A stretch of DNA of 64,000 nucleotides from Owenia fusiformis (lineage: Eukaryota), in the NCBI GenBank assembly GCA_903813345.2, contig CAIIXF020000001.1:8804001-8868000 (forward strand), in the 5' to 3' direction. Below the pieces are notes generated by a model that ran no database searches, was not told the origin of the DNA, and saw nothing but the letters and a program-made list of their open reading frames with translations. Below, in pieces: positions 2,901 through 39,800 of the stretch (within the stretch, counting starts at the first letter, position 1; every line of letters begins with the position of its first letter). The position numbers and the translations under genes were made by a program.

Positions 2901-5382
2901 ATTCTTCTCCTAACCTACTGTTTGTCTTGTTAAAATTGATCAGATGTTATCTGTCAGATGTTTATATTTCACCAGTTCTTTCAATATAGTATGGCGTAAT
3001 GCATTGACAAGATAGATTTAACAATAAAGGACATCCAGATGCTTAACAACTACAGCAAACAAATTTAACATTTATAAATACTTTTTGTTGCTTCCAAGCA
3101 TGATCAAATAGTTACCTATGATTGAATTTCACATACATTGGTAATTACAGATGTCACTCTCAGTTTTTGATTTATGCAATTGCGTGTTCTGAAGCATTAG
3201 TATTTACTCTTTAATAACATGTAGGTTGGGCTGATAGATAGGCTTTAATAGCACTGATTGTTAATCTTGAGATTACAAGGGTGTTTGCCATCACTAATAG
3301 CATATCCTTTTGTTCTTTCCTTTCTCATTCAGATCAATAAGAATCAACAATACATTTCTATGTAAAGCTCCTTTATTTATGGAGAAAATTATTTTCTTAG
3401 TATTTTTTACATAATCATGTGGCTATGTATTAAGTGAAAATAGATTCTCTAAATCACAACATACAGCGTGACATATACCACAGTTAAAATAAATGCAAAT
3501 CAATCATTATACTATAATCAAAAAAATATTTACTGATATAAAAAAACATTTATTGATACAAAAAATAACTTTGTAGTGTGAACTTTCGAGATAAAGATAA
3601 GGCATATAATATACAACCAAAACTTAAAAAATGATACCACTTAAAGGTTTATGTATTCTAAAGGGAACTCACAAGACAGTCAACTTATCCCTTTGTAAAC
3701 CGCAGAGGTCTTGTGTACCTCCTAAACCAACAAATATTGAGACTTAAAACACATTTCAAAGCTCATTTGATCTTTCTCTCAATATTTTGACACTGCTCAT
3801 GATATTTTTCCAATCTGATTATGTTGGACTGAAGGTATCTAATCTAATGTTGAAATAAACATTAAAGGGTATAATATAGAGCCCTGGGTTATGCTACAGA
3901 TTACATTTGCTTTAAATCAGATCACTGCCATAAGTTGTGAGTTTAACTTTGTAAGAAATGAACCTTCTTATACTGTATATTGAATAGTTTTGACAGATAT
4001 TAAATAAACACGGTTTGATCTCCTAATCAAATACTAGAACCCTCTGTATTTTACCTTTCACAAGGGTATTGTAAGATTATATCAGAAGGAAAACTGTAAC
4101 ATCATCAGTAGGAGTGAAAGGGTAGTGTCAGAAACATTTGTAGATTCTGTGGAAACACATTATGATTAAAACATACATAAGACTATTCTGACAAAATAAT
4201 GCTGACATTTCCAAATGATGATATCTAATCTATTTCAAAAACCTCATCTTTAGAATAATGAAAACTGGTTTACATGTATTTTTGATGTTAAAAACTCAAT
4301 ATCCTTTTTTATTTTTAATCTGTGACATAATGTGTTCTATCTTTCTTCATGCATTACAATAATGTCATATGACATTTGCACTGCAGTCATATTTCTACAA
4401 TTCATTGATCATTCTACTCACAACATACACATATAAGTGATTTATATGATCAATAAAACAAGCAAAACAATGGCTTCATTGAGGTTTTATTGATGAAGCA
4501 ATATTGCACTTACCTTGATGGATTATGTTCATGTAAAGTTAGATTTCATCTACTCCTGTTATTAGATATTTCACGGTATTAATGTCAGCCAAAGGTTCAC
4601 CAACATGTGCTTTGAGATAATATATCTATAAATATGCTCTTGACTATATTCTTGCCTAATCAAATCACTGCACTATGAGACCTGGCAAAAATGTTTGGAT
4701 TGGTTGGTGTTCACATTTCGAGGTTTTTTAAAAACATTGAAGTCTGCAGTAGATTAACCATCAAGAGGTGTTCAAATATACAGGTTTTTACTATATCATT
4801 AGAGAACGGAAATCCTTTGAGGATGATGCTGATTGAGAGATTTCATCATATACAGCTTATAGTGACTTGTATGATTGATCAAGTTTATGCTTTGGTAGAG
4901 TAAAAATAAAATCATTAACACATATTAATTCATAGTAAGTTGAAATTTCATGTTATATCATCTAGCATAAAAACAACTCTAAAGTAAAATAAAAACAACT
5001 TTACCACAAGATTGTTACTTAATTTTATTATATATATTATATATGATATTTTTACTTACTTTTTAAAACATCTAAACACCAGGTCCATAACTGTTGTAAA
5101 TAACATACAGGGAAAAACCATTAAACTGTCCATACAAGTTGTTTTCTGAACATGCCAAGCTCAAAAGCATCATTGTACAGTTGTTGTGGCACATCTGGTT
5201 TGAAGGGAATAAACACACTTAGCTTGTGTTTAAACTATAGGTGGGGACATGCTCATTCCATGTTATTTATCTCTAGTACTTTGAAGAAGTGTCTGATTTG
5301 CCTGTATTTTTGCATGACTAAGAGTTTTGACTATACATCTGTTTATTTTGCTAATTTACAATTCCACATATTTCCATGATAT

Positions 5383-6252
5383 TGTAGCGGTAGCACAATT
5401 TTTATTATTAATTATATTCGTTCATTAATTACACATTGATACATTTTACTTTTAACATAACATTTATATGCGTTAAAAAGAGCAGAGTGTCCCCTTTTTA
5501 ATGGTTTTTACCCCGTGTAAATCAGATTAGTATTTTTCGAGTTATGACAATTTGAAAAACATGAGTAAATTGAGATTATTTCGTTTTGTCGGCACTGCCG
5601 TAATAGTTGTCCAGCTTTAGCGATCAATAATTTACTTAGATCTTGGACGGGTCACTTTGAAGTTTTAATTAGTTTGACAAGTTGACAGCTTGGGCTGGTC
5701 TCCGCCCCCTTAATTTGCATATTTCTCGAACGATCGTAAGACTTTTGTTGGGAAAGTCAGTCCTGAGTTTGTATCTGAAGAGATAGGAGGTTCAATTTCT
5801 CCATTTTTATAAAGTCTCAAGTTTTAGTATTCTGCGAGCATCTCAGTGTTTGGATTATTACACTCATTTGATCATACAAGTGGATTTATCATATAACTGG
5901 ATTTATAGCTGGATTTATAATTGGATTATACTTATTGGATTTAACGGATTATTGTCATCATGTCATACACACCTGTAAGGTAAATAAAGTTATTTGTTGT
6001 TTATTGTCTAGAAATCGAAATCATATCTTTTGTTCAGTTATTCTTCATGCAGTAAATTACAATATCCATTAGTGACCATTAAGATACAAATTCCTTTCAC
6101 GCACAAGACGTATCCACACATCATCTTTCCAGTGCCATTTATTGTTAAAGGGGTTTCCGCTCGGCCCAATTCATTCTTTCCAGTAATTATTATTTGGATC
6201 ATTTTATTCCATACTGGTGAAAAACATTTCATTTTAAATAACTCCCGCCACA
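5383..6252 (+). repeat. 5' LTR (870 bp)
   Basis: Matches 12109-12978 with no differences seen by eye. Contains short TGGATTTA-like repeats (~5880-5950) and an AATAAA near 5984. Confidence 0.96.
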
Positions 6253-6253
6253 C

Positions 6254-6276
6254 TGTTGGCTTAGCGTTGGGATTCG
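6254..6276 (+). promoter_or_regulatory. Primer-binding site, tRNA-Leu-like (degenerate)
   Basis: TGTTGGCTTAGCGTTGGGATTCG lies 1 bp after the LTR. It resembles TGGTGGCAGCGGTGGGATTCG, the complement of a typical eukaryotic tRNA-Leu 3' end, with mismatches and a 2-nt insertion. Confidence 0.65.
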
Positions 6277-6732
6277 CAAGATATTGAATGTTATATTGTT
6301 GTTTCTATTGTGAGATAATATTTTGCATTTTCTTGTGGTGTTAAAGGCTTGTATCTGTCTCGCAAAACTTGAGATAACTTCACGGTAACTTTGCAGTGCA
6401 AACTTGGGACTCACCATTTATAATTCGGGGGGATTTTTCCTCACTGATGTCATTTCATTGTTTTATTAACAGTGCCCAAGTGAACTTTAGTAGTGTAAGT
6501 CGACCCAAATCGGATCTACATTGTTCATACTTGAGTACATGTATATGATAATACTCCTTAGCAATTGGTTTTCTACAGAATGCAGTAATAAAGGGTCCAT
6601 GTTAATTCGGTGGTCGTAAATCTGTATTTGAGAAACTAGTTCTTTGAGAGTTGTGATATATTGCAATATTGTATTGGTTGCAGGCGCCCGTAATTGTCCT
6701 GTATATTGTAATATTGTATTTTGTTTGAAGGT

Positions 6733-7163
6733 GCCCAGAATTTTATATTCTGCGCGGAGCTCCATAGAGAGACATTATATTGGGTAATTATTAAAACTCA
6801 ACCTTGTATTATTAGCCCAGGGTAACACCTGCGCGGAGCTCCTGTGTGAGACATATAGTTGAGTAATCTCTGAACCCAATATTGTATATTTTAGCCCAGG
6901 AGCAATCCTGCGCGAAGCTCGGACTGGAAAATTTATTTACCGTTCGGAGCAATACTCATTGATAATATTTGCCCAGGAGCAATCCTGCGCGGAGCCCATA
7001 AGGGACATTTATTAAATTTGCAAAGCACATTGTGTTATTATTATATTGCCCAGGTTAATCCCTGCGCGGAGCTCTTAATGAGACATTTATGAAAATATTG
7101 TGAGTATAAAATTTCTGTGAATTGCCCAGGTTTATTCCTGCGCGGAGCCTCTGAGAAGGACAT
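6733..7163 (+). repeat. Array of six interspaced structured repeats in the retroelement 5' leader
   Basis: Units start at 6733, 6815, 6894, 6971, 7048 and 7124. Consensus is GCC-CAGG(loop)CCTG-CGCGGAG-stem(loop)stem-ACAT, separated by AT-rich, largely unique spacers. Confidence 0.9.
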
Positions 7164-7443
7164 ACATTTATCTTGATAGAGTTGACTCTCAATGAAATTG
7201 ATTGTGAGGAAAATTTCTGATCACTGTAGAGTAGTCAATGTGTTGAGTTGTCTGCGAAGTGAGCACTGAACAGGGAGGGGACAATGTAATGATGTGTTCA
7301 TGGAGTCTCCACTGAAAGGGTGTACATTCAATTGTGCAACCCTTCCCCCACTCTTATAGTGATCTTGAATTTTTCTATTATTTTGAGAGTTTGCTCATTC
7401 ATGATATAATTATAAACACAGAATAGAATCATTGCTCATCAAT

Positions 7444-10400
7444 ATGGCATCTGACCGAGACTCTGATCAGATGGATTTAACACAATGTGCAAACAGCGCT
7501 CGCTCGAGCCCAGATAATACTGTTTTTATCAAAGGGAATAATAAAGAAATAGATAATCCCTTGGCCTCAGATAATACTGTTACGTGGCAGAATGAAATGC
7601 GCCTTGCTCAAGGGCCTGGTGCTATTTTGAAAAATTTTGAATCTGTCAGAGTGCCAAAAAGTACAGGCTATTGGTCACGGGAGAATGATCCATTGTTCAG
7701 CCCCGTAAATGAGCTCACAAATGAGGGAGTAAAGCCTGCTCCTCGAACATCCACAGTGATGCGTTCCTCAGATGCTGAAAATGCTAAATCAATGAGTGAA
7801 CAAATTGGCTATTTGTGGAGCAATATTGAGCTCATCAACCATAAATTTGATAAAATTGATAGCAACTTGGATATGAGTGCTCTTGAGAAAAATGTTTCCA
7901 TGGCAGTAGCTCAAGCACTGGTCCCTGTTCTGAAAACAGGTGTTAATTCAGCAGTTGCTGAGGCAATGGCTCCAGTAATAGAAATGAGCCAAAATCAAAA
8001 TATGGCCCTACAAGAGCAAATGAATGAAAGTCTCTCCAAACAGAAATCTGAATTGCTCAAACTGATAAATAGTAAGACTGTTATGGAAGAGAAAATTTCA
8101 CATGATGAAGTGAAGTTATCACACATGTATGATAATGAGAGGACTCATGAGGAGCAATCAAGAGATTTTAAGAGGAAAGAAATTTCTCCTCCTCCTCCTC
8201 CTCCTCCTCGGCCATATGCTCTAAAAAGACAGAGCGCATTTTATCAGCCTCATTCTCATAGAGAAAATGAGTTGCTTGCTCCTGAGCAAAAAGTACCTGC
8301 TAGTGTATACGCTCAGCCAGGTGAGAGAAATGTTATGTTTGCTCCTCCTAATACGCCAACTTCTGAGCGAAGTGAATTGTATAGGAGTGGAGTTCAGAGT
8401 AGCTCAGACTCTGGAGCAAGCAGAAGTGCTGCTCATGAGGAGTACACTCCTCCTCTTACTATGGATAATGAGCATTCTCTCAATAATCAAGGAGTCCAGA
8501 GTAGCTCAGATTCTGGAGCAAGCCGGAGTGTTGCTCATGAGGAGTACACTCCTCCTCTTGCAATGAAAAATGAGCATTACAATGAGCAACATTATGAGCA
8601 AGATGAGCGCTCCAGTAGATATTTTGAAAATGTTCATGATTTAACTCATTCTCTCCAAAATGCTCAAGGAGAAAAGAGAAGCTCTTCTTTTATGAATGAG
8701 CGTAAAAAGAGACATGAGCAAGATAATGATGAATTTACCTCATATAACTCTCAAAGAGAGGCCTATGGCTCCTCTTATATGATGAACGCATTTAGAGATG
8801 TTACTCAAACACTCTCAGATGTGGTAAAATCTGTATCATCCAGGCAAAATAATGATAAGGCTGTGAAAATCAGACCTGATAAATATGAGGGTACATCCCC
8901 ATGGCTAGATTATGTGAGACACTTTGAAGTGTGCTCTTCCTCCAATAGATGGAGTGATATTGAAAAACGAGATTTTCTAGCTTCTAGCTTACGTGGCCAA
9001 GCTCAACAAATCTTGAATGAGGTTGAATTAGAGTACACCTATCAAGATTTGGTTAATGCATTGAGTAAACGATTTGGCCCTGAGGGTAAAGCAAAATTGT
9101 ATGAGGCTGAATTTAATAATCGTCAGCAAAGACCTCATGAGCCAATACAAAAGCTGGCGCAAGATATGAGAAGGCTCGCAGCCTTAGCATATCCTGAAAT
9201 GTCACGAGAGGCCCAAGATAGGTTGGCCCGTGCCAGGTTCCAACATGCTTTACTGGATGATCAAATCCGGGAAACAATTAATATAAAGGAACCAGAGACT
9301 CTAGATAGAGCAGTGATAATTGCTCTCAAGCAAGAGTCATATCTTGAGTCAGAGAGGATTCGAAAGAGTTCGAAACTAAAGTCCCCAACAGATGAAATGT
9401 CTGCTATTGATGAAAGGCTAGAATCTGATGATTCAGCTGAAATAAGTGCTCTTAATGAGGCTGATAAATTAGAGCAAATTATGGCTAAATTATTGGCAGC
9501 GCAGAATGCGCAAGCTACAGCCCAGATTGATAACTTTGAGAAAATGTTGGCTGGATTTTCAGAGAAAATACCTCAACAAAAACCTCGAGCTGAAGTGACC
9601 TGTTTCTATTGTGGAAAGAAAGGACACATAAGTAGAAAATGCAGCTCTCGAAATGGAGGAAAGAAAATTGATTCCTCAGTTGCTCCTCCAAAGTTTGTGG
9701 AGTTAGAAACTCCCGAGGGTGAGGTATATGGCAGCCAAGTTGTGAGCATGTCAAATGATAAATCTGGTTTTGCGGCCAAAGAGGAAATGAATGAGGCACA
9801 AATAGAGCATTGCCAGTATCAGCCCATAGAGACTGAGCAAGAGAAGGCGAACTCTGTTATAGAGAGCCCTTCCAGAGTTACCTCATCACCAGTAGATACA
9901 GACATTGAGTGTGTTCATGTCGATTTCTCTAATAGAAAGAAGCTGCTAGATTTTGATGTTCGCTCATCAAAGTTGAGTAGCATAGAGCACCAGAGCACAA
10001 AGAGGAAATATGATCCTCTGAATTCCCTCTCTGGTAAATGTTATGCTCATGTTGAAAATGGGAATTGTATAAATGATAAAACAAGTTCTAAGTGTAGGAA
10101 CTTGGAGCGCCAGAGCACAAAGAGGAAATATTATCCTCTGAATTCCCTCTCTGGAGAAAACAGCGCTCATATAATGGAAGGGAATAAAACTGATAATGAA
10201 AGTAGCTCTACAGATAGGAGCACAGAGCCCCAGAGCAAAAAGAGGAAATGCGCACCTCTGAGTTCCCTCTCTGGAAAAATGAATGCTCATTATGATAAAG
10301 GGAGCACTGAATATAGGAGCTCGGAAAACCAGAGCATGAGGAGAATTGAATCTCCAGCTCCTCCTCCTGAAAAATGTAATAATAGCGCACAGGGAGCAAA

Positions 10401-10923
10401 TGATGAGGAGAGCTCTGGTTGTAAAATTCTCTCAAATTGCTCAATGAGAGAAACAAAATCTGTAGAGAAGAGCACTGTGTATGAGGACAAAACATTGGCA
10501 ACTGAAATGCTCACTCATTTAGAAGAGGTCCTCAAAACTAGCTCAGAGAGAATGAGTAATGAACCGGTGTTAGAGTTCACAAAAACGGAGGGAAAGATAA
10601 ATGAGCAGCATGTAGAGCTCTCAAGAGTGTCAACTGCACTCCTCCCTTCAGTGACTGAAACCTCTCAGATTGATAAAGCGTCCACAGAGTTTGCACTCCC
10701 GTGGAAAAACAGTGCAGCTCCCATCTTACAATTGCGAGCAACTCATATGTTTAAAACACATTGCACTGTTGTATTGTACTCCTGTTCTCTACATGAACTG
10801 GAGCGTTTTCTTTCCAGGACCAGCGATGAATATGTGTGTGCTCATGTGAAAGCCTCTGTACCCAGGGACTGGAAGAAGAGGAAAAAGGTGCAAAGTGACT
10901 ATAATGAAGATGTTATAAGATGA
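7444..10923 (+). CDS. gag: Retrotransposon Gag-like polyprotein (~1159 aa from ATG 7444) with capsid-like region and CCHC zinc knuckle; no protease, RT, RNase H or integrase
   Basis: ORF track 7432..10923 (first ATG at 7444). Gag signature KIRPDKYEGTSPWLDYVRHFEVCSSSNRWSDIEKRDFLASSLRGQA...RQQRPHEPIQKLAQDMRRLAALAYP. Zinc knuckle CFYCGKKGHISRKC. No D[TS]G or YxDD motif. Confidence 0.9.
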   Translation: MASDRDSDQMDLTQCANSARSSPDNTVFIKGNNKEIDNPLASDNTVTWQNEMRLAQGPGAILKNFESVRVPKSTGYWSRENDPLFSPVNELTNEGVKPAPRTSTVMRSSDAENAKSMSEQIGYLWSNIELINHKFDKIDSNLDMSALEKNVSMAVAQALVPVLKTGVNSAVAEAMAPVIEMSQNQNMALQEQMNESLSKQKSELLKLINSKTVMEEKISHDEVKLSHMYDNERTHEEQSRDFKRKEISPPPPPPPRPYALKRQSAFYQPHSHRENELLAPEQKVPASVYAQPGERNVMFAPPNTPTSERSELYRSGVQSSSDSGASRSAAHEEYTPPLTMDNEHSLNNQGVQSSSDSGASRSVAHEEYTPPLAMKNEHYNEQHYEQDERSSRYFENVHDLTHSLQNAQGEKRSSSFMNERKKRHEQDNDEFTSYNSQREAYGSSYMMNAFRDVTQTLSDVVKSVSSRQNNDKAVKIRPDKYEGTSPWLDYVRHFEVCSSSNRWSDIEKRDFLASSLRGQAQQILNEVELEYTYQDLVNALSKRFGPEGKAKLYEAEFNNRQQRPHEPIQKLAQDMRRLAALAYPEMSREAQDRLARARFQHALLDDQIRETINIKEPETLDRAVIIALKQESYLESERIRKSSKLKSPTDEMSAIDERLESDDSAEISALNEADKLEQIMAKLLAAQNAQATAQIDNFEKMLAGFSEKIPQQKPRAEVTCFYCGKKGHISRKCSSRNGGKKIDSSVAPPKFVELETPEGEVYGSQVVSMSNDKSGFAAKEEMNEAQIEHCQYQPIETEQEKANSVIESPSRVTSSPVDTDIECVHVDFSNRKKLLDFDVRSSKLSSIEHQSTKRKYDPLNSLSGKCYAHVENGNCINDKTSSKCRNLERQSTKRKYYPLNSLSGENSAHIMEGNKTDNESSSTDRSTEPQSKKRKCAPLSSLSGKMNAHYDKGSTEYRSSENQSMRRIESPAPPPEKCNNSAQGANDEESSGCKILSNCSMRETKSVEKSTVYEDKTLATEMLTHLEEVLKTSSERMSNEPVLEFTKTEGKINEQHVELSRVSTALLPSVTETSQIDKASTEFALPWKNSAAPILQLRATHMFKTHCTVVLYSCSLHELERFLSRTSDEYVCAHVKASVPRDWKKRKKVQSDYNEDVIR

Positions 10924-12095
10924 GACTATAGACGATACCACTAGATCAAAATGGATATATGATCATTGAGAAACTATATGTGCTGATATTTCAGACTGAG
11001 CAATTACAGGGACTCATCTCATAAAAGAGAGCATTGGACACCACTTAATGCCTGATGTATAGTTTGGAGCCAAGAACATTTGCAGATCTTGTGTCATCTT
11101 GCATATGAGAATGTTGGAAAAACTAGAACTTATGAGAAGCTAATGAGTTTTGTAGTTTGGTAATTTAGTAATAATCATATCCACTTTCATAATAAGTAGT
11201 TCTTTAGGATTTTTGATAATGCTCATGAGTATTTGATGAGGAGAATTTTCATTATGATGTTTTCATGTTAAACTTACCTACTCCTCGTGATATTGGAGGA
11301 AAACTCTTGAGAAGTTTTGGTGTATTTTATAGATGATGAGTTTTCTCCTCATTCTCCTCATTTTGAGAAATTATTTTCCTCATTTATATTTTGGAGTTGT
11401 TTGGGAGGAAAATGATAAAATATGTTTTACTCATTTTAGTTTGGAGCATGCTCAATGAGCATTTGTGTTACATAGTATATGGTTGTAAGGATAACTCTGT
11501 TCATGGAACTGAAGAGTAACATTTACATGTGCCTCATATAACTGAAGTTTTGTTGAGAAGTTTTCACACTTAGAGTAATGTGTTTTTTATCTGCTCATTT
11601 TGGAGAAAATATTTTCCTCATAATGTGTTCATGAAAAATGATAAAATATGAGAAAATTATTCTCCTCTTGAGCTCATTTTAGTTAATAGTATTCTATGTG
11701 GGAGTGTAAGCCATGATGGCTTCAGTAAATATTTGTATTTGTTTAAGGAGAACAGTTTTGGTAAAATCTTTGTGTTCTCCAGAGTATAAGGTGGGCTCAG
11801 CTCAATGAGCAACTACCTTGTAACATAATATTTTCAGAGTTTCTCCTTTTTGTCTTATCTACTCATCGTAGCTTAACTTGAGTAAATTTTGGAAAACTTT
11901 TGAAATAGTTATATTGAGATTAAAGTAAAGGATAATCTGCTCTTTGCTCATTTGTAAAACTTAAGATATTTTTGCTCTTGAGGAAAACTTGTATAGCTGA
12001 GTTAAGAGTTACTCATTTTTGCAAATTGATAAAAATTGTTTTCCGCCTGCTCCTCTTTGTGTAACCATGCATGTATGAGGACATACATATTTCTT

Positions 12096-12108
12096 AAGTT
12101 GGGGGATG
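12096..12108 (+). promoter_or_regulatory. Polypurine tract (PPT)
   Basis: AAGTTGGGGGATG immediately precedes the 3' LTR. Confidence 0.75.
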
Positions 12109-12978
12109 TGTAGCGGTAGCACAATTTTTATTATTAATTATATTCGTTCATTAATTACACATTGATACATTTTACTTTTAACATAACATTTATATGCGTT
12201 AAAAAGAGCAGAGTGTCCCCTTTTTAATGGTTTTTACCCCGTGTAAATCAGATTAGTATTTTTCGAGTTATGACAATTTGAAAAACATGAGTAAATTGAG
12301 ATTATTTCGTTTTGTCGGCACTGCCGTAATAGTTGTCCAGCTTTAGCGATCAATAATTTACTTAGATCTTGGACGGGTCACTTTGAAGTTTTAATTAGTT
12401 TGACAAGTTGACAGCTTGGGCTGGTCTCCGCCCCCTTAATTTGCATATTTCTCGAACGATCGTAAGACTTTTGTTGGGAAAGTCAGTCCTGAGTTTGTAT
12501 CTGAAGAGATAGGAGGTTCAATTTCTCCATTTTTATAAAGTCTCAAGTTTTAGTATTCTGCGAGCATCTCAGTGTTTGGATTATTACACTCATTTGATCA
12601 TACAAGTGGATTTATCATATAACTGGATTTATAGCTGGATTTATAATTGGATTATACTTATTGGATTTAACGGATTATTGTCATCATGTCATACACACCT
12701 GTAAGGTAAATAAAGTTATTTGTTGTTTATTGTCTAGAAATCGAAATCATATCTTTTGTTCAGTTATTCTTCATGCAGTAAATTACAATATCCATTAGTG
12801 ACCATTAAGATACAAATTCCTTTCACGCACAAGACGTATCCACACATCATCTTTCCAGTGCCATTTATTGTTAAAGGGGTTTCCGCTCGGCCCAATTCAT
12901 TCTTTCCAGTAATTATTATTTGGATCATTTTATTCCATACTGGTGAAAAACATTTCATTTTAAATAACTCCCGCCACA
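12109..12978 (+). repeat. 3' LTR (870 bp)
   Basis: Direct copy of 5383-6252, followed by the ATAT TSD. Confidence 0.96.
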
Positions 12979-14602
12979 ATATTTTTTCTAATATATGGTC
13001 GCAATGAAATTATGTTGATAGACAGTTAGACTTTTATGTTCAATTTACAGCTTTTTTCTAGAGACAGAGGTAGATTAAGAGATTAACAGGATTTTACAAT
13101 GGCACTTCAGCCACTAATAAAACCTAGAATTCCGCTGATGTTGTATCTTAACATGCAAAAGAGCCAATCAGTCGACACATCGACTCTCTTTTTTATTCAT
13201 CACATACTGACAACATGTCATGTTAAAATACTGTCACTTTGAACTCTGGTTTCATCACTTATTTATGTCAAGTATTATTTTCTTTCAATTGTGTCATTGG
13301 CATCACATAGAATATCAACCTTTTAATTTAATATCTGAAGACATTTTATTTAATTTTCATCAATCAATCAAAAAGTCTCTGTTTTGAGCTCTCTTACTCA
13401 GCATATATTTATATGAAATGAAGATGTAGATAATTGAATAACAGATTGCAATTTGGTATAATTTTTCTAATTTTAATAGTCAATCATATCATAAATCTCA
13501 CCAAACAGGTCAAAGCTATATTACCTTACCTTCTACAACATGTCAAGCATTGTTTATCCTAGGGCAGTATCAGTTGATCCAAAGAGAAATACCCCACTTT
13601 CCTCTGGTATATAAAATCTTGCATCTTCCATCAGTTACTCTAAGTGATCTATCAAATTCAGGAAACCCAGGTAAAGCAATTACATTGTCAGGAATAATTG
13701 TCCTTCTGGTGGATATTGAACACAAAACAGTTGCTTCTCCCGCCAGGAAAAGACTGTTACTTTGGACAAGCTAAACAGGACACAGCTGTCGCAACAAATT
13801 CCAATGCACAGACCAATGAAGCACCTATAGCTCCTTCTTGTGACTTGAGGAAAATGCCTATATTAACTGCAAAAATTTGACAAGTATACAGGCTTTCTGT
13901 TTATACATATTTTGTTTAAAAACAAAAAACAATCAAATTATACAATGTACTACCACTGTCACTTTTTCCATATATACATGGGTCTTTCTATCATGGTAAA
14001 CTAATCTGGTAACCATATATGAAGACAACACAATCAATACCAGGAGCCTGGGGCCTGTTCACCTACGTCAATTGATGATGTTTTGAAATGAACACATGAC
14101 ACCTTTACCATTGCTCCTGCTATCCTTGATAACCCATTGTCCCAGCAGTGGGCAAGGATAGAGGCTCCACAAACAACTGCGATAAGTAGGTTTAGATCCA
14201 ATTTTAAATTGAATTAGTGTGAAGGTTTAGGATAGCAAACCTGAAGTACCACTTTTACAGGAAGAATGTGATGGCTAATTAACTTTTACAAAACCAAAAA
14301 CAGATGCTTTGTAGTAATCTGCCACAAAATCTATAAAAACATTTGTGGAGTGACCATTGCTCTCTAACAAGACTGATGAGCTCTTCATTAACGGAAATTG
14401 TTTTCTCTTTTTCTGGTTTTACAACTAACTAACATACAACCATGAAAACAAACAGAACATAAAAATAAAGATTATTAGTCCATCCATATAAAAGAAAATG
14501 ATTGATTGATAATTGTAATGAAAACTATATCTTGGATTAAATTGAAATGACATGTAAATGCCCATATATAATTAGACTAAGGTATAATAATGGCTTTGTA
14601 TA

Positions 14603-18971: not shown

Positions 18972-19260
18972 ATATTATATAAGATATTCAAAGAAAATCA
19001 TCACCTGTATTTTAAATAGCTAATTACAGGTTCAACTTTTAAGAGAGGAACACGGAGCAGTCTGTGAGGTAAAGAACTCTAGGAATGACCTATACAAACA
19101 AGCAATACCTCTCTTACATCTACAGAATGTCAGTGAAGCAAGACCTAGGCGTGCTGAGAAGACTGAAACATGATGTATAATGGCTTGTAGCACATCTGGG
19201 AAGGCCAGGCCAGCCAGCTGTGATCCCATCTGGAGTAAGCAACCTTGCTAATGTCACTCT

Positions 19261-19570
19261 CATAGACCATTATAATGACAAACATGATATCTTCATTGCA
19301 AAGCATCAACATACTGATCAGGAGCACATAGACCATGATAATGACAAACATGATAGCTTCATTGCAAAGCATCAACATACTGATCAGGACCACATAGACC
19401 ATGATAATGACAAACATGATCTTCATTGCAAACCATCAATATACTGGTTAGGACCACTAAGACCATGATAAAAGCACATGTGATATCTTCATTGCAAACC
19501 ATCAACATACTGATCAGGACCACATAGACCATGATAATGACATACATGATGTCTTCATTGCAAAGCATCA
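19261..19570. repeat. ~60-bp minisatellite, about 5 copies
   Basis: Repeated unit CATAGACCATGATAATGACAAACATGATATCTTCATTGCAAAGCATCAACATACTGATCAGGAC. Confidence 0.9.
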
Positions 19571-22500
19571 TGATACTTGTCGTCAGGACTGAACTGTAGA
19601 CGATGATAATGACATAATATAACTATAGAAATACTTGTTCCAAAGGCTATGAAAATATAAATCAACAGTAAGATGTTCAACTCACACAGGTTTATATAGT
19701 TCATCAACAGGCAATCTCCCCAAGTGTTCAGTCTTCCACCTGTCTGATTACTTTGTTTTCCTTGCAACTGTCCTTGATGACAGGGAAGCAACAAGTCTTT
19801 GAATTCCAATATATGCTTCTATTCTTATACATCCAGTGACTATAACTCTTGTAGATAACACCAGAAAGTTGCACAAAGTGGTAAGCAACTAGTTAGCTGG
19901 CTAAATGATCATAATGAAATACATTCTTCAGTTCAAGATACTCTAAAGGCTAAAGCATATCTTTCTATCACTGGAGCAAATGTTTTCCATCACCCCTCAT
20001 CATTTGTTAGTCTATATTACACAACAGCCTTCAGATGTTTGTATTTCTGCTTGGTTTGTATCTTACTAGATGTGTGGCAGCATATAACCATCATATGTTT
20101 GGAAAAGCTAGCATCTCAGTATCAATGCATCATTTTGCATCCTTTTTATGTCATTTTTGCCTTTGTTTGACTGGATCTGTTATCAATATTACATGTGCTA
20201 TATTGTAGCATATGACCATTCCCACGGCATAAGAAAACAAGAAGCACAGATTTAGATTTAGAACTCTCATTTTGAGCTTGCAAGGAGGCTTCCAGGCTGA
20301 CCTTGGTGTGGTTCAACTTCTTAAAAGAAAATGTGGCTTCACAAAACAAATAAACAAAGGACTCCTCAAATGATTGAAAGGGTGATCTACACATGGTTTG
20401 GCGACTTCAAAGTCATCATATAGCTAATTCATAATAGGTGTTGATGGTAAATCAGGGATAAGGGAAAGAAATCGACCTCCATAAGTAAATATATCAATCA
20501 ATGTCAAATACACATAACACACAGACATGCAAGTTCTCTATGTTTAACATCAGCTACAACAAGTCAGCAGATGACTCCATGGACGAAGGTCATTTTGGCC
20601 TTCTGCATGTCATTTTGGCTTTTAGAGAAGGGCACACCACTGTGGGATCCTGCAGTATCCCTTAGAGTACAAGCTTCAGATAAAGAGCAACACTGATGAA
20701 TCTAAATGAGGGTGTATTGCTGTTGGCTAAATGGTGAAAGACCTTTGTCAATGCAAATGAATGTTGGGCACTCTTGTTGATGTTGTTTGAAATAAGACAT
20801 TGTGCTATTTTAATAATTTCTTCACATCTAGAATATGATCGTTAATTGGTGATGTGATCTTCCATATTCCATCTATCTAGAACTACAGATGCTTGATTTT
20901 GGATATTGAGATGTCTGCAATGCTAGAGGCAGTACAATCAAAAATTACTTATTGAAATCAAATATTCTTGTGAAAACAGAAGCATGTTCCAGTATGTTTT
21001 GATGACCCTATTGAATTAACAGAACATTTCAATCAATATAACTCCTCTTAATCTATATCAAAAAAATCTTTTTCTTGAGTCTTATATCTTGGAATAATAT
21101 TTGCTTTGGAATGCTTGCACAATTTTTTAATGTGTTGCTTAGAAAAATTGTTAACATTGACTACAATAGATGCTGTTCATTTAGCCTTCAATAAGACTGT
21201 GAAGATATATTGACCAACTCGATAACAATCTTGTGTGAAACAACATTAAATGTTATTTTTTACTTACCCTCAACCCAATAACTCACATTGAACATTTTGT
21301 AATATACATTTGCATTTGTGTAATTATGACCATTTTCTAGAATTACAAAGGAACTAATCCTTGTTCTTTGTATGTCCCAAATATGATTTCAATTTATATA
21401 ATGTGCATAATGATATTTCATTTTAATTTGATCTTTCAGTCAAACCATACTTCAAATATTCAATGAACACACATATCTCCATGGCAACATCAATATTAAA
21501 ACATGACTTGAAGTTACTATTGTAATAAAATACTAAATTCAAACGTGAGAAATGAAACATCTATACAATGAGATGAGATAAGGTATACCCCTGAGTTATT
21601 TTCATCTAATAAAGTTTCTAATCATCAGCTTCTTTATGTATTGGGTTACAATAAAAACAGATCAATTATATATGTGATAAACTCGAAAAATAAATCATGA
21701 GTAAAAAATCAAAGATACCAACTACCACGTTAACCTACTGTATGAAGCTCAACTTAAAATAGTAAAGTTCATTATTTTGTGTATGTGTAGATATCACTAA
21801 TGAACAATTTCAACAGTAACCTCTGAAGTCATTTACAATACTTATTATCTGATAGGAAAATATATAGGAATAGCATAGTATAATAGTATCATTATGGATT
21901 TTGGAACTTCCTTATGATTTAGAATTTTGGCAAGGTGGAAATAATTTGTGACATCACACTTCATAATCATTTGTGACTTTACTTACTAACACTAAACCCC
22001 AAACCTTGAAAATAAAGTTTAACAAAAATGCAAGGGGCAATATTTTATAACAGAATAAAACCCAAATACCGAAAAGCCTATATGAACCATACCAGTCAAT
22101 ACAAAATATGATGTAATTTTAGAATATAGGACAGATTCATATTTTAAACCACTCGGATTTACTTCCAAAACATGTTGTAGTTGTCTGGTAAGATTATTCC
22201 AACCAACTTGAAAACAAAGTACTGGTTACCACAGATACAGAAAAGCATGTAATGCATACTATGAACCAAACCTGGCAGAAAAAAGAAAACAGATTTTTAG
22301 CCTCATTATAGGAATGTTGATTTGAAGATGAATAATATATTTGTTAATGCATGTCCTAATTTATATCTATTATGTATAATACATACTGGCACCTGGGGCG
22401 GATCTAGGAACCAACAAGGCGGGGGCCAAATGTAATGACCAAAAAAGACCCACGTTTTGGGGTTTAAGGCCTTTTTGGCCCAAATTTGTTTTGCCCCCCC

Positions 22501-27338: not shown

Positions 27339-29006
27339 CATAATGGTAACACTGATTGATGTTCAATAATCAACTTTACGTTATCCACAAGTGCGTGTAT
27401 ACCTGTGATAAAAGTGGTCTCTCTTATTTGACAACAATAAAACCATAATAAAGTGATGTATGCATTTGTAATAAACTCTTGAGTAAGTCATGTTTTCATG
27501 TCCAGCTGACAAAGTCTTACTACTGGATGAGCATAATGTAAAAGTGGTTTTGAAAAGTAGCAAATTTCTCTTTATGTAGGTTTTTTGTGGTTTATTATTC
27601 TACATTGATTCTGAAACTATTGGTGTCTAGTTTTTCAGCGTTTTGGAAATATGCAGATTTATACCCCCCTGGTGTTATTTTAAGGAGGGTCCTAGGAAAG
27701 CCATGTATAATTCCTAGAGTATCCAACCAATCATCTTGAAATTTACAGGTAATCATCTTCTTATCATGTCCTATCATTGTGAGCAGTTTCATCAATATTG
27801 GTTAGCTGGTTGCTATGGTAACAGAAATCACTTGTTAAAAAAGTACACATTTTCGTAAAAATTTAAGACCTACCCTGAGACAAAGCACATAATATTTTCC
27901 TGGAATTGGGAGGAATTAGCATGAAAACATATTAGAAAACTTATTTAGAGTATGGTTGATAATACTAAATCAATTGATGTTTTATTTTAGCCATACAATT
28001 AATTATATTTGCCGATGATAATATGGCTATGCAAAAAAATGTGTAAAAGGGGGCGTGGCACTTTTCCCAAGAAAACTTTATTTGTACCCAAGTTTGTGAA
28101 TAAATATATGACTATTCATTCTGATATTAACAGCTATTAGTATAGTTATGATGTTTAACCATCATGGGAAGTTTCGCTATTGTTGGTCTACTGGTTGTTA
28201 TGGTAACAGAAATCATTTGTTAAAACAGCTGACCATTAAAGGGGTATGGGGTATATTATCTAATTAAGGATATAAACTTTGTCTTCAAATATACATTCAT
28301 GGCTTTGTGAGGTCATCAATGTGATTTTATTTATGTGTGCTTAATTTGCATCTTGGAATGAAGTAAAAACGCATTTTAACAAAATCAAATAAATTATTGT
28401 TTATATTAAATAAATTCATTAATCTCATTCTGGATGATACTAATTTATCACTCACTCACATGCTTACCTATATATTTGTTTCTTTTTAAATCAACCTGAC
28501 ATCTTTATGAAATATACATGTTTGAGTGATTCCCGTCATGCTTAATATCCAGATAGAAAATAATGTTATTCATAAAAATAGTTAATAATTCCTATTTGGT
28601 ATAACAATAATACCAAATTTAGAGCATTAATTAAATGTTGCAATTAGAATTTAGACTTCATTAATGTGATGGCAAATTAAATCTGCATTCCTAGGAATAA
28701 GTTGTATATGCAATGATAAATCAGTTGTTGATATGAGCTTTTGTTGTCAATGTTATGCTTCAATTACCACAGTTCATGCCTTCTTGATTAGCTGTGCAGA
28801 CCTGATGAAATAGATATACGTTGTGCGGTTAAGCTGTGCTACATCTAGATAGAGGTGAGTGATTGTGGACAGGTGAGTGATTTTAGTCAGGTGAGTGATT
28901 TTGGACAGTGGTTCCAAACAGTGCGGTGTGGTTGCCTAACTGATTACGGGGCAGTTGCGAGTGATTTTGGACAGTGGTTCCAGACAGTGCGGTGCGGTTG
29001 CGTAAC

Positions 29007-29526
29007 TGTGTTTATCCCATACTTGGACGTGTTACAGGTACATAAAGCCGGTTTGTAAAAACTTATATTTTCACCAGCGGGCAGATATAGCTTTACGTCC
29101 CGCTCCGAGCGGGCAGATATAGTATATCTGCCCGCTACGTCATAATCGCCGCTCGCATATTTGTTCATAATTTGTAACGTTCGCGTAATGACTGTAAACG
29201 ACAATGGAGAAAACACGGACAATCGGGATCTGTTTGATGGTTTAAAAAGGGAAGGAGCATCCTCTTAATCAATCAAAAATTCGAGAAAATAAATGTGGGA
29301 ATATTTGAGAGAACAGGAAATCCGCCCACGGCCGAACAATGTGAACCAGATGATCAAGATTGGTATGGGATAAACATATTATCCTATAGTCGGTTCAGGG
29401 TATTGGGATTATCCCTTGGCCAATATAATATATTTTCCCTCGGGACCTGCGGCCCTCGGGCAAATATATTATATTTGCCTCGGGATAATCCCAATATCCT
29501 GAACCTCATATAGGATAATCTCTATA
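29007..29526 (-). mobile_element. Hairpin-type non-autonomous DNA element nested in the long-TIR element
   Basis: Inverted pair TGTTTATCCCATAC / GTATGGGATAAACA followed by a ~140-bp palindrome ending CTCTATA. Same architecture as 55124-55765 in reverse orientation. Confidence 0.65.
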
Positions 29527-29863
29527 GATGCAGAGGCATTCTTTATTTTCTTTATTTTATAATTTTAGGGTGAAGTCAAGGTAGGTGATCTAATACACAA
29601 TGTTTATGTGTGCTGCATACAGATAAAGTTTAGTGACTCTGTGTTAATAGATTGAGTGATTTTGGACAGTGGTTCTAGATAGTGTGCTGCGGTTGCAGTT
29701 GTGCTATATACACAGTTATTCCTTATTTTTTACTTCACCATCGTTTAGTTTCCATTATTGCATCGTGGGGTGTTGCCCTTCCAATATATATACTTTTTTC
29801 CATATATCATGCAACTGAGTAGAACCATGTAAATTAATGTATTAGTGTTGTTACGTGTATATC

Positions 29864-30410
29864 ATGTCCGAGAGAAGTTTGAGGAAAAGATCCTCTGCTC
29901 TAGCAATTGGTGAAGAATGTCATAGTAAGAAATTACGCCAAAGCAACCTTTTTGAACAAAACAAGTGCCTCTTTTGTGAAAAAGATCTGAAATATCTCAA
30001 AGGAAACACAAAAGAATCATTAACAAAATGCCAAACAGACAACGCTTCATCATCAATAATAAATGCAGTGAAAGCCAAAAAAGACTGGACTTTATGCAAA
30101 AATAGGAGGACGCTGTTTGATATCAGCAGAAGCTTGGTACCATAATACCTGTAGAAGAAATTACTTGTGCAAGAAAGTACGAACGATAAATGAAGAGGAA
30201 AAGGTTTTAATAACATCATTTGACTTCATATGTAAGCATATAGATGAACATGTCCTTCAAACCGATGGAGTTGAAACACTTGAACATGTCCATGAGCTGT
30301 ATCAGGCACATATGAAGGAAAACAATCTGAGTGACTATAACCCCAAATATAAACAGCTCTTCCTGAAGAACAAACTTTCTGTTCGCTATAAAGATGACCT
30401 TTGTTGCAAT
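29864..30410 (+). pseudogene. Truncated, frameshifted transposase N-terminus
   Basis: ORFs 29855..30145 and 30117..30485 join by a frameshift into MSERSLRKR...KCLFCEK...ISAEAWYHNTCRRNYL. Confidence 0.6.
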
Positions 30411-30575
30411 CTACTCTTTATTGCCTTTCATTTGAGTATTATAAATTTCTGTTTTCCTGAAAAACACAGAATATATGTGAAATAGATAGATGTTGCGAAT
30501 ATAAATATATAAATTATATATAATAATATAAATTTCAAACAATAATATTAATTACTTTGGTTTAGAATGAAAAAT

Positions 30576-30727
30576 TTATGATTTTTGCGAAAAAGTCCCG
30601 TCATTTTTAAAGCGGCGGCCATCTTGAAAATTTTTTTTTTGCGTAAAACTATTCATCAATATACATCTTTCCACCAAATATGAAGAAAATCCGTCAACTA
30701 ATATTTGAGTTATCTTCCGGACGGACG

Positions 30728-30758
<31 letters not shown>

Positions 30759-30914
30759 GGACGGACGGACGGACGGACGGACGGACGGACGGACGGACGG
30801 ACGGACGGACGGACGGACGGACGGACGGACGGACGGACGGACGGACGGACGGACGGACGGACGGACGGAGGGCTTAACTATGTCCCTACCGAACTTCGTT
30901 CGTTGGGATAATAA
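30576..30914 (-). mobile_element. Helentron-associated (HINE/DINE-1-like) element with (CGTC)n microsatellite, truncated
   Basis: Minus-strand 5' end TTATTATCCCAACGAACGAAGTTCGGTAGGGAC, then (CGTC)n at ~30717-30868 and AAGATGGCCGCC motifs. Similar to the start of the element at 57368. Confidence 0.75.
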
Positions 30915-32859
30915 TGTAGATATCAAGGAAAACTGACATTATTTTTTCACTTTGAACACAAATAAAGAATTCTTAGGAAATTGTGCCATGGCCCCTTTCT
31001 AACTTTTTTGCAAAGCCAGTTTACCATCAGCAAGTAGAATTCTTTGTATGGCTAAGATAAAGCATCAATTGATTTAATTTTATGAAACATACTCTAAATA
31101 AATTTTCTAAAATGTTCTCATCCTGACTGTCATAAAAATATTATGTGTTTTGTGTCAAGGTATGTCTTAGATTTTTAAGAAAATACAATCTTTTTTAACA
31201 AATGATTTCTGTTACCATAACAACCAGCAGACCAACAATAGTGAAACTTCCCATGATGGTTAAACATCATAACTATACTAATATCTGTTAATATCAGAAT
31301 GAATAGTCATATATTTATTCACAAACTTGGGTACAAATAAAGTTTTCTTGGGAAAAGTGCCACGCCCCCTTTTACACATTTTTGCATAGCCATATTATCA
31401 TTGGCAATTATAATTAATTGTATGGCTAAAATAAAACATCAATTGATTTAGTATTATCAACCATACACTAAATAAGTTTTCTAATATGTTTTCATGCTAA
31501 TTCCTCCCAATTCCAGGAAAATATTATGTGCTCTGCTCAGGGTAGGTCTTAAATTTTTACGAAAATGTGTACTTTTTTAACAAGTGATTTCTGTTACCAT
31601 AGCAACCAGTTAACCAATATTGATGAAACTGCTCACAATGATAGGACATGATAAGAAGATGGTTACCTGTAAATTTCAAGATGATTGGTTGGATACTCTA
31701 GGAATTATACATGGCTTTCCTAGGACCCCTCTTAAAATAACACCAGGGGGGTATAAATCTGCATATTTCCAAAACGCTGAAAAACTAGACACCAATAGTT
31801 TCAGAATCAATGTAGAATAATAAACCACAAAAAACCTACATAAAGAGAAATTTGCTACTTTTCAAAACCACTTTTACATTATGCTCATCCAGTACCAAGA
31901 CATTATTGTGAAACTACATGTGGAGGTATCAAAGTCCAGGGGAAAAGTAGTATTTAGCTCAATCAAGAATAGGTATATTAGAAAGAGACTTTCTATATTG
32001 AGCTATTGCTTCTTTCCCTTGGCCCATGGGAGGTGTGGTATATGTGTAATGAAGATATGTTACACGATTAATAAAAAAAGTTTTTCAGTACAGCATGAAA
32101 ATGGTTAAATGTCTCTTAATCAGTTCAGATTTGAATTTTTGATTTTGAATTTTTTCTAAATAGTGCAGTTTTCACTTACCTGTTTATGAAATGGTTGGAA
32201 CCTGGTTCTGCTTAAGTTGGATGGAAGACTTCTACTTGTAGAAAGCAGCTGTATATGGATACGTTTTTCTGGCAAGGTTCTCTCTAAAAACACAAACATA
32301 CCCCTTGTTTATCATAACATTTCTACTTAAATAGTCCAAAAGATAAAAATAACATAAACGTTTATAAACACTTGAAAAATCTTGTGTTGACCTGTAATGG
32401 AATGTAACAAAAAGCAATGTTATATCAGAGTTCACAACAAGCAAAGAACTATGAAATTAAAGTTGAATGAAAACCCTGCACATTTGTGTGCTATTACGCT
32501 TAGATTCACCTGTATATTTGCAAAGACTGCATTTGTAGAAGGCCCAGAAGGCACCAATTTTGGATATCAAAGATGTAGCCAAAGTTGAGGTCTTACAAAT
32601 GGTACATGATGAATTCATTTTTTCATGATCTTAATCAGAATTTCTGTACATTTTAATTAATTATGCAGATGAGTTTACATTGTGATAGATAGTAAAGTGA
32701 ATCTGGTATAGTGTGGACAACCAAGCACACGTACCATCCTGAGTCAGCACTCACTAACTAGGATCAACCTCAACACAACCCAATTAACGTGACAAAATTA
32801 TCACATGGAAAGTCATTGCAACTGGTTATAACAAGGCACATGATGTGAACGAGATCACA

Positions 32860-36815: not shown

Positions 36816-39800
36816 TAGCGCAGTCAGATGTCCCTTTGGTAGTTCGACTTTTTCAGGAAAGCAACAAACTTGGCACAGTTGTAGAAACATATGATCTGAA
36901 TGAAAAATGATTTCGGGGCAATTGATTCGGGGTGGTCTTCATGGATTTTAAGCCTCTGACCCCCACCCCTATCAGGCGGGGAGGGGGTACATTATAATAA
37001 AATAAATAAAAATAGTTGTAAAGTATATTTCTTTAAATGACATCATTTGGTCATTGCTTTGACCCTTGAAATTGAGATAAACCTATTTCAGAAGTGGTGT
37101 TTAGGAAGGAAAATACATTTTAACCCAATTATCTAGCGTGAATTCATCTTTCAAAGGGTCAAATATAGGACATCAAGTACTGTATTTCAAGAATATGATG
37201 TCTGATCATCCTGAAAAAATTCATACTAATAGATATATTGATGTTTATCACTCATATGATATATGGCTTGTGTAGCTCATGTATTTTTTGAGAAATAAAT
37301 TATCGAAATTTGGATATTTAAGCCCTTGCGGCCTAGGGGTGACCTTATTTTACCTTAATAATTTTTAAGATACGCAATGTTTGGGCCTCATATGAATTCT
37401 AAATGTTGCATTAAGTATTGTTTTGTCATATTATTCCTAATTAGATGTAAAAAAATTATTGAAAATAAAAAAAAAATCAAATTTTCATTTTCGGTTCTAA
37501 AGGGCCAGGGGTAACCATATTTTACCCTAATAATTTCCCAGATATGTAATATATGCATCTCAAATTAGCTCAAGATGTTGCATATAGTTCTGTTTTATCA
37601 TACTTCTTCCAATAAGATGTAGAAAATGATCGGATATATCTAAAAAATCAAAATTTCCACTTAAGCTCTTGATGGCCCTGGGGTAACCTTATTTCACCTT
37701 AATAATTTTCTAAATATGAGACATAGTCACCTCAAATGAGCTTAAGATGGTATATTTAGTCCTGTTTTATCATATCATTCCCAAGGAGTGAAAAAATGAT
37801 TGGAAATTATAAGAAAATTACATTTTCATATTACACCCCTAATCCGCAACATCTTCTTGCAGCACTGTAAACAGTACTGAACAGTGCAGTCAGAGTACTG
37901 CACTATATAGCAAGGTACAATGCTATTCTAACACCATCTGTTTTGGACAGCGAAGTACAGTACTGTTTTTACAGCTCAGTACTGTTTTAGAAAACAGCTG
38001 TGTACAGTACTGTTTTTACAGCACTGTTTATGAAACCATGCTGTTTGATGCAGTTTGAGATTGGTAGTGTAGTTTATGATAGGTCAGGAATGACCTAATT
38101 TTACCTTAAAAATTTAAACAAAGATATATCATATTGTCTACTCAAATGAGCTCAAAATAGTGAATATAGTCTAGTTTTGTCATATTATTCCTACTGAGAT
38201 ATACAATAATGATTAACAGTTATAAAAAAAAAGAACCTCAACAGCCATTTATTCCTTTCTAGTACCAATGGCAATACTATCTAGTTTTATAGAACATTTT
38301 CTTAGATATGAAAATGTTTGATAAGTCCAGTTCATACTAGCACGAGTAGTAGCATTGTTAAGATTCTGTATATTATCATTTGAGTATAAATCCAAATCTA
38401 TAAAACCTAATCAAAGGAGTCACAATTTATGGATTCTGACAGTCTCTCCTACAGCTACATAGCTCAGAGCAAATCAGATCTGCTTTCAAACATTTGCATC
38501 TGTTCTCTTGACACAGGTATACCTACATTTTATGTTGTGGCCTCAGTATCAGCAGTGGGAGTAGGCCAGCCACATTCATGTGGTGATAGAAACTGTGGCT
38601 AAGAATGCATCAGAATGAATAAGGACTCTAGTCTTCTAATTTTAGGGTATCAAAAAAGATTTAAAGCTTTAGAACACTTGCGTAACCTCTGGGTACACCT
38701 GCTATTCCTGCAAATCAGTTGTCTAAGAGTAGTAGCAGAATGCATCTAGAGATTGTATGAAAAATGGTAAGGGCTAAACTTCGTTCATGGCCAAGTGGCC
38801 TTGAAATATCTAAGACAGGTCGTACATTCTGGAGGAATTTCCCCTTACCATAGGCCATATGCAATCCAAATTGACATTTTCAGCACAAGTTACTGCCAGT
38901 TTAAACCACACCAAAATCAACTGTATTGACTATGATTCTTATTAGGTCATGACAGAAGCAGTCTTTGGCACGCTTCTTCATACGAGCGAATGGTGATGGC
39001 AGATACTTCACTATCGGGCTAAGATATTGCATTACCTCATTGTGAGGTCACAATCTTCTTGCCATCTTCCTCCAGGGTTTCAGTTTTGATGCCTGGAAGG
39101 AAAACAGCTCCCTCTTGTTCCAACTATCTTAGGAAATCTTGCCAATTCCACAGAAGAAAATTAGTAGGATATACTTTCCTCACTGTTCCAGTTTTGTGCT
39201 GTTTGTATCTATGCTCATTAACATCAAAGTTGAATGACTAAGCTACATAGTAGATGCCAAAATAATAGACAGGGCATGAATAGTTAAACATGCTAACAGT
39301 GATATAAAAAGAAAATTGGGTGATTATGCAAATATGATATTACCCACGTAAAAGTCTGCAAATAGTTCATTGCCTTGATGTCAGCTGGAATGTTTACCAG
39401 GACACTAGCTTAAAGGGGCAACAAGGTCTGTAGAAGATTCAATTTTTTTACTTTTTCTGAGCTATCAGGGTAATATTTGGCTAAACATCTTCTTTGACAT
39501 ACCTATTTTCTTAAAATGTATGGATAAACTATCAATTTTAGCATTAAGAAGTGTAAATTTAGTTCAAAGCTTCTATAAAGGGAGGCCCACTTATAGATTT
39601 TTAAGATCCAAAACATTTCCAGAGGAATCAGCTGAAATAATGTTCATCCAGGGGGTTTCTTTGGAAAAAAATAAACATATATGTTAGTCTTGATGAAATA
39701 TCCAAACTTGAATATATTTTGACACTGGTCCATGATCGTTGAATCGTTTGCACTAATTGTTGCACCTTTAAAACAGCACTAGAGAGACTTGTGGAACTGG

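Follow-up and report, generated by a model that had tools for sequence, protein, structure and literature searches.

Background

Non-autonomous long terminal repeat (LTR) retrotransposons that have retained gag are already a known kind of element, documented mainly in plants. HeT-A of Drosophila, ETn in combination with MusD, and the deletion variants of mouse IAP are likewise gag-only or coding-deficient and obtain their enzymes from a partner, following the same logic of dependence as the element described here, in other element classes and other hosts. The TR-GAG elements of Coffea, Arabidopsis and Triticeae are termed ‘semi-autonomous’ and possess LTRs, a primer-binding site (PBS), a polypurine tract (PPT) and a GAG open reading frame (ORF), with no enzymes (PMC13570524). 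In the wheat centromere, the ORF of RLG_Quinta combines GAG with a domain of unknown function, without reverse transcriptase (RT) or integrase (INT); the element is mobilised by RLG_Cereba, with which it shares PBS, LTR termini and PPT, and is proposed to contribute its Gag to shared particles (PMC11302176). Here we describe a 7,596-bp LTR element of Owenia fusiformis, situated at positions 5383-12978 of a 64,000-nt stretch on the forward strand of contig CAIIXF020000001.1 (assembly GCA_903813345.2, positions 8,804,001-8,868,000), hereafter the window. We consider it, with a probability of roughly 70%, to be a young, structurally complete, non-autonomous Ty3/gypsy-type LTR retrotransposon that has kept its gag and was moved in trans.

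As in elements of the TR-GAG and Quinta type, the GAG ORF is intact, while protease, RT, RNase H and integrase are absent. The similarity to TR-GAG extends to the LTRs and to the PBS-like and PPT-like tracts. The element differs in being hosted by an animal, in its length of 7.6 kb, apparently above the ‘proposed size spectrum’ mentioned in PMC13570524, and in its Gag, which is extended by 460 aa at the N-terminus and ends in a tail of 419 aa; moreover, one copy is known here. With RLG_Quinta it has in common a gag joined to an unassignable domain and the lack of enzymes, but the partner of RLG_Quinta is known, whereas the present element is known from one window and has no centromere link.

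No animal example of a gag-only LTR element was found among the papers listed by full-text searches, the coverage of which leaves out most subscription journals; papers on TR-GAG and related elements all dealt with plants or plant tools, except for an insect-mobilome preprint, which contained none. Nor did the phrase ‘non-autonomous LTR retrotransposon’ occur in the papers listed for molluscs, annelids, bivalves and insects. Two surveys of annelid LTR elements, one of them PMC8220671, sort these by pol domains and make no mention of non-autonomous elements, so that elements like the present one would be missed or left unclassified. LTR elements are reported as the largest class upregulated in O. 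fusiformis after hypomethylation (PMC11292947), which indicates that active LTR elements exist in this species.

Structure of the element

The components of the element are listed below in window coordinates.

5379-5382, + strand: left target site duplication (TSD), ATAT, the same 4 bases being found outside both LTRs
5383-6252, + strand: 5′ LTR, 870 bp, TG..CA, identical to the 3′ LTR, with TATAAA at 5808 and AATAAA at 5983
6253-7443, + strand: untranslated leader, 1,191 nt, with 15 upstream ATGs
6257-6276, + strand: PBS-like tract TGGCTTAGCGTTGGGATTCG, its TGG starting 4 nt past the 5′ LTR
6700-7170, + strand: leader array, six units of ~78 bp with an invariant core
7444-10923, + strand: Gag-like ORF, 1,159 aa (P0001), the sole long ORF
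10924-12108, + strand: non-coding 3′ region, 1,185 bp, with a degenerate duplication of ~230-240 bp
12096-12108, + strand: PPT-like tract AAGTTGGGGGATG, G-rich purines adjoining the 3′ LTR
12109-12978, + strand: 3′ LTR, identical to the 5′ LTR at 870/870 positions
12979-12982, + strand: right TSD, ATAT, matching the left TSD

Direct alignment of the two LTRs reveals no differences, with identity ending exactly at both borders, and blastn agrees. The LTR ends, TGTAGCGG...CCGCCACA, are of the TG..CA type, and their terminal inverted repeat matches at 7 of 8 positions. The element thus combines the TG..CA direct repeats and the 4-bp TSD of an LTR retrotransposon; although the TSD is only 4 bp long and lies in AT-rich DNA, we roughly estimate the likelihood of a chance match at <1%. 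The complete lack of differences over 2 x 870 bp makes this a young insertion, for the age of which we calculate an upper bound (95%) of roughly 0.2-0.9 million years if neutral change is assumed to proceed at 2e-9 to 1e-8 per site per year. An earlier sequence-only reading of the window had delimited the element at these coordinates and had described apparently identical LTRs, an intact TSD, a PBS and a PPT; the coordinates, the LTR identity and the TSD proved correct under exact alignment, and a PBS-like and a PPT-like tract were found at the expected places. The reverse complement of the PBS-like tract has CCA at its end and includes CGAATCC, which we take to resemble a tRNA T-arm.

The flanks of the element are unique within the window, and blastn detected no further copy, solo LTR or fragment of it in these 64 kb. 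The surrounding DNA is AT-rich (window GC content of 0.28-0.41 per 2 kb) and nearly devoid of long reading frames. Over the element, Rfam returned only two sub-threshold microRNA-like matches, which scored 25 bits where the cut-off is 96 bits.

The ratio of observed to expected CpG declines along the element, from 0.92 in the LTR to 0.64 in the leader, 0.35 in the ORF and 0.14 in the 3′ region, with values of 0.24 and 0.46 in the flanks. O. fusiformis is reported to methylate its transposable elements (PMC11292947), despite which the LTR is not CpG-depleted. The duplication in the 3′ region involves about 11350-11450 versus 11590-11695, and the same region contains 5 of the 16 CTCATTTT sites in the window, all on the + strand.

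The Gag core

The ORF can be subdivided as follows, where pLDDT is the predicted local distance difference test score and pN/pS the ratio of the proportions of non-synonymous and synonymous changes.

7444-8823, + strand: N-terminal extension, aa 1-460, mostly predicted disordered, with predicted helices at 109-215 (AlphaFold model)
8389-8592, + strand: 34-codon duplication in the N-terminal extension, pN/pS 0.22 (4 non-synonymous and 5 synonymous changes)
8851-9378, + strand: capsid (CA) domain, aa 470-645, pLDDT >90, with matches to capsids in PDB
9598-9645, + strand: CCHC zinc knuckle (nucleocapsid, NC), aa 719-734, with C720, C723, H728 and C733 present
9664-10920, + strand: C-terminal tail, aa 741-1159, 419 aa, occupying the protease position of relatives, predicted disordered, pLDDT <50
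9967-10326, + strand: three 40-codon tail repeats, each with a KRK or KKRK motif

Across the whole 64-kb window, the longest stop-free frame outside the element in any of the six frames is 137 aa, compared with 1,159 aa for the ORF, which has no in-frame stops, whereas a region-by-region count gives 9-66 for each of the five remaining frames. The sequence-only reading had treated the entire 3.5-kb frame as Gag. It is indeed open over 1,159 codons, but is recognisable as Gag only at residues ~470-737, so that homology to Gag covers only some 270 of the 1,159 residues.

Pfam matches to the ORF at E<=1 belong to six families: the gag-type PNMA, Retrotrans_gag, DUF1759 and Ty3_capsid, then zf-CCHC, and one stray match (E=0.13). 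PNMA, the top and weak match, is sub-threshold, as are Retrotrans_gag and Ty3_capsid, and zf-CCHC is above threshold with 23 bits versus a cut-off of 20.8. An exhaustive HMMER search of a library of 1.84 billion representative proteins yielded 6,777 that match the ORF at E<=0.001, and in 149 of the best 150 of these the best-matching stretch falls within about residues 400-775, that is, the core with its near flanks. The nearest gag core among the matches listed is only 42-45% identical.

The AlphaFold model, built from 60 aligned sequences, reaches pLDDT >90 at ~470-645 and shows a long helix after this, at 663-706. When the capsid was compared with PDB by Foldseek, the capsids of PNMA2, dArc1, Arc and Ty3 ranked at the top (E of 3e-4 to 4e-2), and comparison with viral models yielded caulimovirid coat proteins, metavirus ORF1 and retroviral Gags. 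The ORF retains 45 of 51 conserved core columns, all four knuckle ligands among them, a column being counted as conserved when at least 80% of the 59 other sequences in the alignment agree. It therefore encodes the two-lobed retroviral-type capsid and the CCHC nucleocapsid of a Ty3/gypsy Gag; the Ty3/gypsy-type assignment rests on gag and its relatives, the element itself having no RT to place. The two-lobed capsid fold is shared with Arc, dArc1 and PNMA2, which are fixed host genes without LTRs, whereas the ORF here resides in a fresh and complete LTR element.

Absence of pol

No family of protease, RT, RNase H or integrase was found on the ORF by Pfam at E<=1. In tblastn searches of the 64-kb window, three relatives containing protease and partial RT matched the gag region only, and a complete 2,160-aa polyprotein matched the gag core only. 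Neither transposon nor pol domains were detected by Pfam on the 29 largest flanking ORFs, and no frame in the 3′ region of 1,185 bp exceeds 51 aa. When a profile of 11 protease-bearing relatives is compared with the ORF, the alignment covers residues 472-737 and goes no further; homology therefore stops right after the knuckle, at the expected start of pol. The absence of protease, RT, RNase H and integrase, noted in the sequence-only reading from missing catalytic motifs, is thus confirmed by Pfam, tblastn and profile comparison alike.

Relatives of this Gag are Ty3/gypsy polyproteins and look different downstream of the core. Of 20 longer relatives, 13 have a protease in frame after the knuckle (nine at E<=1e-5 and four more at E<=0.01, under the Pfam cut-off), and the domain order of P0155 is protease, RT, RNase H, integrase. 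In another gag relative, P0152, three zinc knuckles are accompanied by a tail of ~440 aa that gives no protease match and ends close to a hydrophobic stretch; judging from its sequence, it may represent another gag with a non-pol tail, or else a mis-joined gene model. P0062 had been considered as a parallel case of a long-tailed gag without protease and was ruled out, as RT-like sequence can be recognised in it by eye. DSGA, a motif pattern of protease sites, occurs in the ORF at residues 322 and 356, and was rejected as a protease site because both occurrences fall within the 34-aa repeat of the N-terminal part and thus precede the capsid.

The N-terminal extension and the C-terminal tail

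The N-terminal extension has the same GC profile by codon position (0.51/0.40/0.32) as the gag core (0.51/0.39/0.31). Its residues 1-315 align with P0005, a 313-aa protein from a 37-Mb contig, annotated in NCBI as ‘unnamed protein product, partial [Owenia fusiformis]’; the two agree at 266 of 316 aligned positions (84%). P0005 is the sole indication that the lineage of the element comprises more than one copy, by its sequence a copy 16% diverged; no second relative of the extension was present among the matches listed from HMMER and word-index protein searches. The identity to P0005 is mosaic, at ~80% across the first ~255 residues and 100% across the final 60, as might be expected after recombination among members of the family or for a segment under strong constraint. 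The end of P0005 coincides exactly with the start of the 34-aa tandem duplication of the ORF.

The tail is kept open, with no stops in its frame versus 11-51 in the other five, and none of 20,000 shuffles was open. No relative of the tail appeared among the matches listed from the same HMMER and word-index searches; the latter, run at near, shorter and longer lengths, gave 3, 3 and 1 matches, leaving the tail uncovered and including no full-length copy. The ESM Atlas offered no usable match for the tail or the N-terminal part, and phmmer with these two parts against 154 fetched proteins retrieved P0005 only.

The leader array

The core of the leader array, GCCCAG(G/A)-loop-(C/T)CTGCGCG(G/A)AGC, is 26 nt long and constant across the six units, the exceptions being a paired change in unit 1 and a single G/A difference in unit 3, while the mean column identity of the units is 64%. 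An 11-nt part of the core has six matches in the window versus 0.14 expected, all of them within 6700-7170 on the + strand. The array is real and constrained. Only 2 of the 15 upstream ATGs of the leader lie inside this 470-nt array.

The same small hairpin can be folded in every core, with 36 of 36 pair cells paired and one compensatory change from G-C to A-U in unit 1, and the array as a whole folds with z = -2.3. With one compensatory pair in six sequences, covariation was not significant (86 of 500 shuffles scored as high), and the six cores are no more stable than their shuffles, 11-92 of 200 of which fold at least as well. Thus, the existence of the array noted in the sequence-only reading is borne out; its role there as a self-packaging module gains little from hairpins that are no more stable than shuffled sequence and show a single compensatory change. 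Action as RNA, in packaging, export or dimerisation, and action as an array of DNA-binding sites are equally possible.

The tandem array of Drosophila gypsy binds Su(Hw). PMC3286476 refers to that array, located in the 5′ untranslated region, as ‘a powerful insulator’, and also reports mosquito non-autonomous LTR elements with tandem repeats. Both gypsy and the present element carry short conserved tandem sites in a Ty3/gypsy leader, but the motif here is a different one, and its core can also form an RNA hairpin.

Proposed mode of transposition and alternative explanations

The element supplies all of the cis requirements for transposition and, among the trans requirements, only Gag. It encodes no protease, RT, RNase H or integrase, so reverse transcription and integration would have been performed by the enzymes of another element. 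Under the proposed mechanism, the 5′ LTR would drive a genomic RNA carrying the PBS, the six-unit leader, the single ORF and the PPT. The ORF would be translated into the 1,159-aa Gag-like protein, composed of the N-terminal extension, the two-lobed capsid, the long helix, one knuckle and the disordered repetitive tail. Protease, RT and integrase for the pol-less RNA would come from an autonomous Ty3/gypsy element active alongside it in the cell; by working on the PBS, PPT and TG..CA ends that the gag-only element itself carries, these enzymes would leave the 4-bp duplication. The Gag of the element, if still able to assemble into particles or contribute to them, might co-assemble with that of the helper or replace it. 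Provision of pol in trans, which the sequence-only reading had derived from the identity of the LTRs, is the most economical reading of the anatomy, LTR identity, gag core and absence of pol taken together; the step presumes that pol was absent at insertion, which a single copy cannot prove.

It should be kept in mind that a number of observations weigh against this reading. Only one copy and no helper are present in the window, and pol may have been lost after insertion instead of before it. The window contains no tRNA gene to pair with the PBS-like tract, to which no cognate tRNA was matched, and the register of the tract against the standard 3′ end of a tRNA, as we take it to be laid out, is one base short. 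The leader has 15 upstream ATGs, compared with about 24 expected from its composition, and translation of Gag would consequently need leaky scanning, internal entry or leader splicing. Six of the 51 conserved core columns differ, with three charge changes among them (E551K, E570K and R650D), and such departures at conserved positions of the sequence could impair assembly. The tail repeats are still in frame at a divergence of 35-47 of 120 nt, with pN/pS of 0.71-1.18, and GC by codon position is flatter in the tail (0.45/0.42/0.40) than in the rest of the ORF. Because of this pN/pS and the missing codon-position signature, a function of the tail as protein appears doubtful.

An ordinary explanation would be that an autonomous element lost its pol in a single rearrangement, during reverse transcription or after insertion, and that the copy is a dead end. 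This is what a lone copy in 64 kb would suggest, all the more so as the closer gag relatives long enough to be judged all have protease or pol, and incomplete LTR elements are common in annelids, with all domains present in 32 of 182 elements in Lamellibrachia luymesi (PMC8220671). The parent may also have encoded gag in a long ORF of its own, which would survive a clean deletion of pol intact; with the closest listed gag core at only 42-45% identity, the parental layout is unclear. We nevertheless regard a one-off loss as unlikely. No remnant of pol is present in any frame, and a plain deletion would not create 1.26 kb of unrelated but open coding sequence, distinct in composition, together with 1.19 kb of unrelated non-coding sequence, for which reason a lineage that has been without pol for some time is favoured; the lack of a pol remnant and these 2.4 kb also argue against simple loss of pol at a later time. 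Furthermore, the tail repeats have diverged considerably and yet remain in frame, which indicates some age. It is much less probable that the element is older than it looks and that its LTR identity is an artefact. Collapse of repeats or polishing during assembly would yield an exact 870-bp identity, and LTR-LTR gene conversion could equally produce it, but the borders are sharp, the TSD matches, the flanks are unique, and the 3.5-kb ORF is fully open, as in a young copy.

We also view as very improbable a domestication under way, in which the host would use the Gag-like protein in the manner of Arc or PNMA and the LTRs would merely drive its expression. The best fold matches are to the domesticated capsids PNMA2 and dArc1, the weak top Pfam match is PNMA, and the ORF is long and open. 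However, the Ty3 capsid is also found among the fold matches, and a domesticated gag gene is fixed and lacks functional LTRs, PBS and PPT, whereas the identical LTRs, TSD and PBS-like and PPT-like tracts seen here are those of a fresh insertion rather than of a fixed conserved gene. Returning to a non-autonomous element moved in trans, a more specific form of this reading, which we put forward only tentatively and think rather unlikely, would make it a capsid satellite: a long pol-less lineage with its own Gag under selection, a basic repetitive tail in place of pol, and six private hairpin signals by which its own nucleocapsid would package the RNA into particles that steal the Pol of a helper. 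If true, it would be an animal counterpart of the Quinta/Cereba pair and a plausible half-way stage to capsid genes of the Arc/PNMA type. Should the element prove to belong to a family with a helper, it would offer an animal system for how a retrotransposon parasite maintains and employs a capsid of its own, what determines the specificity of packaging, and how capsid genes detach from pol ahead of domestication; a single defective copy would be ordinary.

Other repeats in the window

A foldback-like element of ~4.4 kb occupies positions 27511-31904, with arms at 27511-28228 and 31135-31904 that are up to 98% complementary and contain ~380-bp subrepeats. It encloses a (CGGA)n/(CTGA)n microsatellite at 30694-30897, and none of its ORFs matches a Pfam family. 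Another pair of long inverted repeats at 36828-41824, with arms of about 0.95 kb that are 84-90% complementary and ~172-bp subrepeats, is probably an older element in the same style. Short tandem or dispersed repeat families are located at 19223-19614 (66/130-bp units) and 57713-58375 (~124-bp units).

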